A program made the position numbers and the translations under genes. Positions 18,600 to 19,863 of a stretch of 64,000 nt of DNA are shown in pieces; the stretch's first letter is position 1; each line of letters starts with the position of its first letter. The stretch is from an uncultured Candidatus Binatia bacterium. Its GTDB lineage: Bacteria; Desulfobacterota; Binatia; Bin18. The stretch is taken from NCBI GenBank assembly GCA_965200965.1, contig OZ241744.1, positions 768,001-832,000 on the forward strand, written 5' to 3'. The notes under the pieces are model-generated. The model was not told where the DNA came from, searched no databases, and was given only the letters and a program-made list of their open reading frames with translations.

Positions 18600-19046
18600 A
18601 TGAAGTCATCTCAGCGCTCTCATCCAGTGGGCGACATACGCGCCGCTATTCGGGCTGCCGGGCTGCGTAGCACCATGTCCCGGGTTGCGGTGCTGAGCTA
18701 TCTGCAATCGGTGACAACCCCGCTCAGCCACGCCGAAATTTTTTATGCGCTGGAAGGACAGGGGGTTGACCGGGCCACGGTCTATCGCAACCTGGTTGAC
18801 CTGACCGAGGCCGGCCTGCTGGTACGGACCGATGTCGGCGACCATGTGTGGCGCTTTGAGTTGCGCCGGGCCGGCCAGACCGAGCGTCAGACCGAGCACC
18901 CGCACTTCATGTGTACCGACTGCGGCGGAGTCGAGTGCCTGCCCGAGATCCAGGTGCGGATTAAGCCGACCGCGGCCATCCCGCGCTCGGTGCGCGCGCA
19001 GCAGGTCGAGATGCACTTCAAGGGCCTGTGTGACCGGTGCGCCTAG
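18600..19046 (+). CDS. Fur family transcriptional regulator (probably Zur)
   Basis: GLRSTMSR, DRATVYRNL, HPHFMCTDCG, GLCDRC; upstream TTGCAA-17-TACGAT promoter; zinc-island context. Confidence 0.9.
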   Translation: MKSSQRSHPVGDIRAAIRAAGLRSTMSRVAVLSYLQSVTTPLSHAEIFYALEGQGVDRATVYRNLVDLTEAGLLVRTDVGDHVWRFELRRAGQTERQTEHPHFMCTDCGGVECLPEIQVRIKPTAAIPRSVRAQQVEMHFKGLCDRCA

Positions 19047-19128
19047 CTGGCTACCGGGCAGGGGAACTTCCGTTGCGGGAATCTTCGTGTATGATAGCCG
19101 CTTCCACAGGGGAAGGAGTACGAGACCG

Positions 19129-19443
19129 ATGGCAAGCCGCATCCGAAAAAACGACATGGTTCAGGTCATGGCCGGCAAAGACAAGGGCAAGACAGGCGAG
19201 GTGCTCCAGGTTTTTCCGAAAAAAAACCGGGCCACGGTCCGTGGTCTGAATATGGTCAAACGCCACCTCAAGCCGAACCAGCAACGGCAGCAGGGTGGCA
19301 TTGTTGAGAAAGAAGCGCCTCTGCACCTCTCCAACGTCATGCCGCTTGACCCCGAGGACGGCCGTCCGACCCGGGTCGGGTTCAGGATTGCCGAAAGGAA
19401 GAAGGTCCGCGTCAGCAGACGGACCGGCAAAGTGCTTGACTAG
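19129..19443 (+). CDS. rplX: 50S ribosomal protein L24 (orphan copy, Cys-free)
   Basis: IRKNDMVQVMAGKDKGKTG (KOW), GGIVEKEAPLHLSNV, PTRVGF; SD aaggag; not flanked by rplN/rplE. Confidence 0.95.
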   Translation: MASRIRKNDMVQVMAGKDKGKTGEVLQVFPKKNRATVRGLNMVKRHLKPNQQRQQGGIVEKEAPLHLSNVMPLDPEDGRPTRVGFRIAERKKVRVSRRTGKVLD

Positions 19444-19452
19444 CGCGTGCGG

Positions 19453-19608
19453 CTATTTCAGGCGGGTTTCCTTGTAGATGACGTGTTTGCGGGCAACCGG
19501 GTCGTATTTTTTGAGTTCCAGTTTATCCGTCATGGTCTTTTTGTTTTTGGTCGCAATGTAGAAGTGGCCGGTGCCGGCTGACGATTCCAGTTTGATTTTT
19601 TCGCGCAT
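19453..19608 (-). CDS. rpmG: 50S ribosomal protein L33, Cys-free form (not in ORF track)
   Basis: Manual translation [53 protein letters not shown] aaggagg. Confidence 0.95.
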
Positions 19609-19626
19609 CGTTCGTCCCTCCCTTGC

Positions 19627-19863
19627 CTACACTTTGATGCCGCGCCGGCGCATGTCTCTCAACACCCGCTCAATGCCCAGCTTGTCAATCGTCCGAATCC
19701 CGCGTGCGCTCAGGCGCAGGCGCACCCAGCGTTTTTCGTTCGCCACCCAGAACTTATGGGTCTGCATGTTTGGAAGAAAACGCCGTTTTGTCTTATTGTT
19801 GGCGTGGGATACATTATTCCCGGTACGCGGGCGTTTGCCAGTGACTGGACACAGTCTTGACAT
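19627..19863 (-). CDS. rpmB: 50S ribosomal protein L28, long single-Cys (C-) form
   Basis: [42 protein letters not shown] gaggag. Confidence 0.96.

Follow-up and report, generated by a model that had tools for sequence, protein, structure and literature searches.

The three ribosomal proteins uL24, bL33 and bL28 of this uncultured Binatia bacterium lack a zinc ribbon, and their genes stand side by side behind a predicted zinc regulator. We consider it probable, at roughly 70%, that ribbon-free proteins of foreign origin permanently and stepwise displaced zinc-ribbon uL24, bL33 and bL28, a change that likely lowers zinc demand. In this scenario ribbon-free genes, likely from other bacteria, would have been inserted behind the native gene for a likely Zur. 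The zinc-ribbon originals would have been lost after this insertion, a loss probably favoured by the lower zinc demand of the ribosome. The present rplX, rpmG and rpmB would thus be the sole and likely constitutive genes for the three proteins.

A ribosomal gene trio next to a predicted zinc regulator

Within the window, the whole stretch of 64,000 nucleotides that was analysed, a Fur-family regulator gene native to the family (18600-19046, plus strand, PF01475) that likely encodes Zur precedes rplX (19129-19443, plus strand). The rplX product is a uL24 of 104 residues that contains the segment NVMPLDPEDG and scores 128.7 bits against TIGR01079 (cut-off 53.7). On the minus strand follow rpmG (19453-19608), encoding a bL33 of 51 residues, and rpmB (19627-19863), encoding a long bL28 of 78 residues. 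The CxxC...CxxC ribbon ligands are missing from all three products, with no cysteine in L24 and L33 and one in L28. A previous sequence-only reading had described the four genes at this place with these cysteine counts and this segment, and sequence and profile matches agree with it. The three ribosomal genes are adjacent in 7/8 genomes of the genus, the eighth being a 780-contig draft without a match. Since this order is kept and window positions 16000-21200 lie within one contig in two of the four public runs examined, the locus is not an assembly artefact. The stretch is present in runs labelled sponge metagenome.

Predicted metal-uptake genes lie upstream of the regulator. ZnuA-like, MerC, ZnuC-like and ZnuB-like genes and a gene for a His/acid-rich protein occupy 11099-15902 (minus strand), followed by a ZIP-family transporter gene (10287-11027, minus strand, PF02535). 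The metal transported is predicted, the matches to both zinc and manganese models being below cut-off. The His/acid-rich protein of the uptake operon, which is without a family match, may be a porin. A His/Asp/Glu-rich repeat with EHADED units is found at 14650-14950 in a 587-residue protein of this operon that matches neither Pfam nor NCBIfam. Two adjacent genes beyond the trio (22079-24706 and 24761-26905) encode large membrane proteins with nearly identical C-terminal domains.

The regulator matches PF01475 while staying under every NCBIfam cut-off for Fur, PerR and Irr. Its gene occurs in 36 of the 43 genomes of the family and comes after a znuB-like gene in five of eight loci from genera with a four-cysteine L24. 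The linkage to znuABC and a conserved palindrome, the predicted binding site, indicate that the Fur-family neighbour of rplX is likely the native Zur. A second, canonical Fur-family gene (L226, G000:C1:2455425-2455787) is located after a gene that is TatD-like by its motif.

The palindrome, a putative Zur site, has the consensus TTGCAAYnnnRTTGCAA in this genome. Two copies of 17 bp lie at the uptake operon's promoter (16283-16299) and ahead of the ZIP transporter gene (11049-11065). Scored with a matrix built from 25 sites in relatives (training minimum 15.6), these rank first and second in the genome with 22.7 and 20.8, a ranking that is partly circular as the seed consensus came from alignments including these two sites. 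By the same matrix score a Zur-like box is absent before rplX (-8.4), rpmB (-8.5) and zur (1.9), which bears out the earlier remark that no clear Zur box precedes rplX or rpmB. Both genes have conserved promoter-like elements of their own. The putative rplX promoter (GGGAACT ... TATGAT, 19062-19095, plus strand) is free of a Zur-like box and is kept in 7/7 aligned genomes; a sigma-70 scan made no call on it. For rpmB-rpmG, alignment of upstream regions points to a putative extended -10 element (TGCTATA, 19901-19907, minus strand). As a box is missing and an alternative copy is too, expression of these genes is probably constitutive.

Emptied native sites and the origin of uL24

The genome consists of one contig of 3.62 Mb and is 99.3% complete. 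Searching all of it gave a single match to each of rplX, rpmB and rpmG; weak additional rplX matches (E 0.2-0.3, only ~35 residues) were discounted. In the spc operon rplE comes 21 bp after rplN (C1:3458048/3458070) and rplX is cleanly gone, confirming that rplX stands apart from this operon. The same adjacency of rplN and rplE is found in all eight genomes of the genus. Likewise, rpmG is absent from its native tuf-rpmG-trnW(-secE) site, where the gap between tuf and trnW is ~30 bp. The sequence-only reading had proposed that rplX is a zinc-swap paralogue and had suggested looking for second copies of rplX, rpmB and rpmG. With single genes for L24, L33 and L28, no cysteine-bearing partner for any of them in the same genome and cleanly empty spc and tuf-trnW sites, there is nothing to swap with. 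This refutes the swap for this genome, short of a copy missing from the assembly.

Intact pairs of rplX are also absent from the relatives searched. Among 401 Binatia genomes, 392 had an rplX match and five had two, none of which proved to be an intact second gene. In two of these the double match is due to a 3' fragment of the window-type rplX (G042 and G064), two others each hold a complete additional spc operon on another contig, likely bin contamination (G151 and G401), and in the fifth a single rplX is broken at contig ends (G275). A set of 351 Myxococcota genomes likewise yielded no intact second rplX (340 matched, two of them twice), both double matches being assembly splits.

Several peculiarities of the ribosomal operons were noted alongside. 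A frame of ~224 codons with low GC (47%) and a nuclease-like look, without a Pfam match, reads stop-free into rpoA (L011:17557-19248, G000:C1:3465556-3467247), and two other genomes (G005, G007) have related inserts in the rpsD-rpoA interval. All loci of the family that span the rpsG-tuf interval lack fusA there (G000:C1:3451247-3451467; L258-L265), and the outgroups have it. map follows directly after secY in this genome and in G014; G008 has a 670-bp gap at this position.

The ancestral uL24 of the lineage had a ribbon, as evidenced by its relatives and the species tree. All nine genomes examined from the remaining genera of the family encode a four-cysteine L24 inside spc. So do 29 of the 31 examined from other Binatia families, and the L24 of the last two has one cysteine. 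A second Binatia lineage, family f5 (L032, L253, L229), has a one-cysteine L24 within spc. In a tree of L24 residues 1-69, for which 62 of 97 aligned rows were retained, a branch with 98/93 support cuts the window clade from all other Binatia. Forcing the window L24 into its own family is rejected (p-AU 0.025; 69 columns, LG+G4, outside rows picked by likeness to the query L24). Outside Binatia the best matches are ~55-65% identical, and neither searches nor trees found a donor clade. These trees, built on few columns, suggest that the sole, cysteine-free copy outside the emptied operon is likely foreign and not a moved native gene. A simple move of the native rplX was rejected on the four-cysteine L24 in the spc operons of the kin and on this placement outside Binatia. 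At 73%, the GC3 of rplX is close to the range of 55-69% in native ribosomal genes. Purifying selection acts on rplX, with dN/dS of 0.03-0.19 in 21 pairs from seven genomes. Plasmid searches returned matches that resemble chromosomal ribosomal genes. Ribosomal genes beside homologues of the regulator were found in none of 80 metagenome loci, many of them on short contigs.

Ribbon loss in further ribosomal proteins and in the sister genus

The ribbon is lost from five large-subunit proteins of this genome (L24, L28, L31, L32 and L33) and kept in four others, since S4, S14, S18 and L36 retain their cysteines. For L28 the nearest named relatives outside Binatia are mostly Gammaproteobacteria, with 72-77% identity. 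L31 is of the long one-cysteine type in 33/33 genomes of this and the sister genus (sequences read for 31) and of the short type in 10/10 other genomes with a match. Its C-terminal part is shared with four-cysteine kin, which suggests that the gene was patched in place before the two genera split. In this genome the one-cysteine L31 gene occupies the native rpmE-prfA site before prfA (L274, G000:C1:721807-722076). L32 is cysteine-free in all eight genomes of the genus and has four cysteines in 18/18 others examined. Its gene, rpmF, is relocated in this genome, and the native site before plsX is empty. Both rpmE and rpmF are thus ribbon-free and lie away from the zinc genes.

The sister-genus relationship is supported by an aLRT of 99.9 over 4,131 columns in an alignment anchored on this genome; an earlier species tree, of ~800 columns, left the family unresolved. 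In the sister genus rplX is inside spc, and its product is cysteine-free in 21/21 genomes examined. Residues 1-69 of this L24 are 75% identical to four-cysteine kin and 60% to the genus studied here, while the last third shows the opposite pattern, with 68% identity to this genus and 41% to the kin. The sister-genus L24 is therefore likely a mosaic in which residues 1-69 are native. A shared source of this last third in both genera was considered, but the trees do not establish it. The two thirds join with 81/89 support when cysteine columns are included, and the join is lost when the four cysteine columns are removed. Grouping the sister-genus third with four-cysteine kin is not rejected (p-AU 0.16).

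Replacement of rpmB and rpmG is under way in the sister genus. An rpmB-rpmG unit is present in 7/28 of its genomes, at three insertion sites, and is 92-97% identical at the nucleotide level to that of one member of this genus against a background of 68-74%. The unit has been imported recently into these seven genomes, and three of the imports include a 3' fragment of the window-type rplX. The TGCTATA element upstream is kept in 14/14 aligned regions and travels with the transferred units. In six of the seven genomes a native copy is either not found or damaged by stops, a frameshift, truncation or the loss of a cysteine; the seventh is ambiguous. Among the 21 genomes without the unit, rpmB is full-length and stop-free in all and rpmG in 15, the remaining six being drafts without an rpmG match; the cysteine patterns come from two genomes. 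The sister genus displays several stages from cysteine-bearing to ribbon-free proteins: both copies, native copy decaying, native copy gone. At three loci (L206, L208, L209), from genomes that are not each other's closest kin, the unit has the same insertion site, immediately ahead of a CobW/COG0523-type gene that lacks a box. Only this one of the three insertion sites adjoins such a gene.

Alternative explanations, known systems and significance

Zinc as the selective driver is suggested by the location of the trio and by the repeated loss of cysteines. In a dense symbiont community, temperature, oxidative stress or drift might instead have driven the same replacement history, the zur site being hit by chance. 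This would fit the missing boxes at rplX and rpmB, the replacement of rpmE and rpmF away from the zinc genes and a published link of uL24 and other ribosomal proteins to temperature, as treated in the parts of PMC10450194 consulted. It would also fit a myxobacterial parallel without zinc context. In one Myxococcota genome (G501; L450, L463, L464) a stand-alone cysteine-free rplX outside spc is followed by a cysteine-free rpmG, their products being 41% and 76% identical to those of the window, and there are no zinc genes nearby. However, each of the five large-subunit replacements found eliminates a four-cysteine site, and the sister genus re-imported the unit at three sites. The chance of landing within ~10 genes of the uptake operon is below 1% by a rough estimate (~20/3,300 genes), although the insertion is a single event common to the kin. 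We regard a driver other than zinc as unlikely, if worth keeping in mind. A more improbable history involves no foreign gene: the native rplX would have lost the ribbon while still in spc, before the two genera split, and then have left the operon and diverged fast. The two genera are indeed sisters, both have a cysteine-free L24 with similar C-terminal thirds, and the GC3 of rplX is near that of native ribosomal genes. Against this, residues 1-69 of the two genera differ more from each other than the sister genus does from four-cysteine kin, the AU test rejects a family clade, dN/dS is low and the adjoining rpmB is nearest to Gammaproteobacteria.

The remaining readings concern regulation. 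A present-day Zur-repressed spare L24 that replaces a zinc-binding L24 under zinc scarcity would account for the position beside the likely zur and the metal-uptake operon, yet it is contradicted by the single rplX of this genome, by the lack of intact pairs in the Binatia and Myxococcota searched and by the missing box at rplX, and we give it almost no credence. What stands of the zinc-sparing idea in the sequence-only reading are the ribbon-free forms, the four-cysteine kin and the likely Zur neighbour; the paralogue does not. A perfect box, a CobW/COG0523-type gene, zur and rplX are co-directional in 3/7 genomes of the genus, an order that also speaks for a spare L24, and a fourth genome retains a remnant of the CobW/COG0523-type gene. 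If there was an earlier stage linked to Zur, this order is its best trace. Tentatively, uL24 could then be a member of the zinc-swap set after all. The foreign rplX would first have been kept as a Zur-derepressed spare, placed last in a box-COG0523-zur operon, and the pair would then have been resolved both ways, this genus deleting the spc copy and the sister genus patching a ribbon-free 3' third into the spc gene. In relatives that keep the box, rplX might still respond to zinc.

Stepwise displacement, the reading we prefer, follows the same route as path B described for S4 in the part of PMC3087516 consulted, where a ribbon-free gene is acquired outside the operon, the native cysteine-bearing gene is lost and the authors propose reduced zinc use. 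In contrast to S4, uL24 is affected here together with bL28, bL33, bL32 and bL31, the insert lies behind a likely zur, and recent intermediates are visible in the sister genus. Path B is known for S4; for uL24 we did not find it in print in the sources as far as consulted. Zur-regulated ribbon-free paralogues are described for L28, L31, L32, L33, L36, S14 and S18 in passages of PMC3087516 and PMC11672702. Similarly, cysteine-free L28 and L33 form a two-gene unit near zinc-homeostasis genes here, but without a cysteine-bearing partner or a Zur-like box. Those passages do not name uL24, and 'L24' has no match in the first 300,000 characters of PMC11672702. According to passages of PMC10450194, uL24 binds zinc via CXXC-CXXC in Thermus, many bacteria lack this motif, and ribbon loss correlates with growth temperature; unlike here, these passages describe no transfer, relocation or mosaic of uL24. 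In the part of PMC545781 consulted, a Zur signal ATGCAACnnnGTTGCAT is predicted before znuABC-zur of Desulfovibrio. It is a 17-bp palindrome of the same shape as the TTGCAAYnnnRTTGCAA found here, likewise before a znu-like operon, with zur after znuB in kin of our genome, although the two motifs differ and both are predicted only. In the 995-genome table of PMC3353972, as far as seen, 'L24' occurs 998 times, suggesting very few extra copies. Our literature search, within the portions of the sources accessed, found no report of displacement, swap, relocation or Zur regulation of uL24.

The ribosomal protein uL24 is considered to act early in assembly and serves as a phylogenetic marker on the premise of vertical inheritance. 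A whole genus that relies on a likely foreign uL24, together with the likely mosaic of its sister genus, indicates that uL24 is exchangeable. Single-marker or concatenated trees can therefore carry foreign signal. As the sister genus preserves several stages of replacement, the long-proposed explanation of ribbon loss by zinc economy becomes testable with natural alleles.
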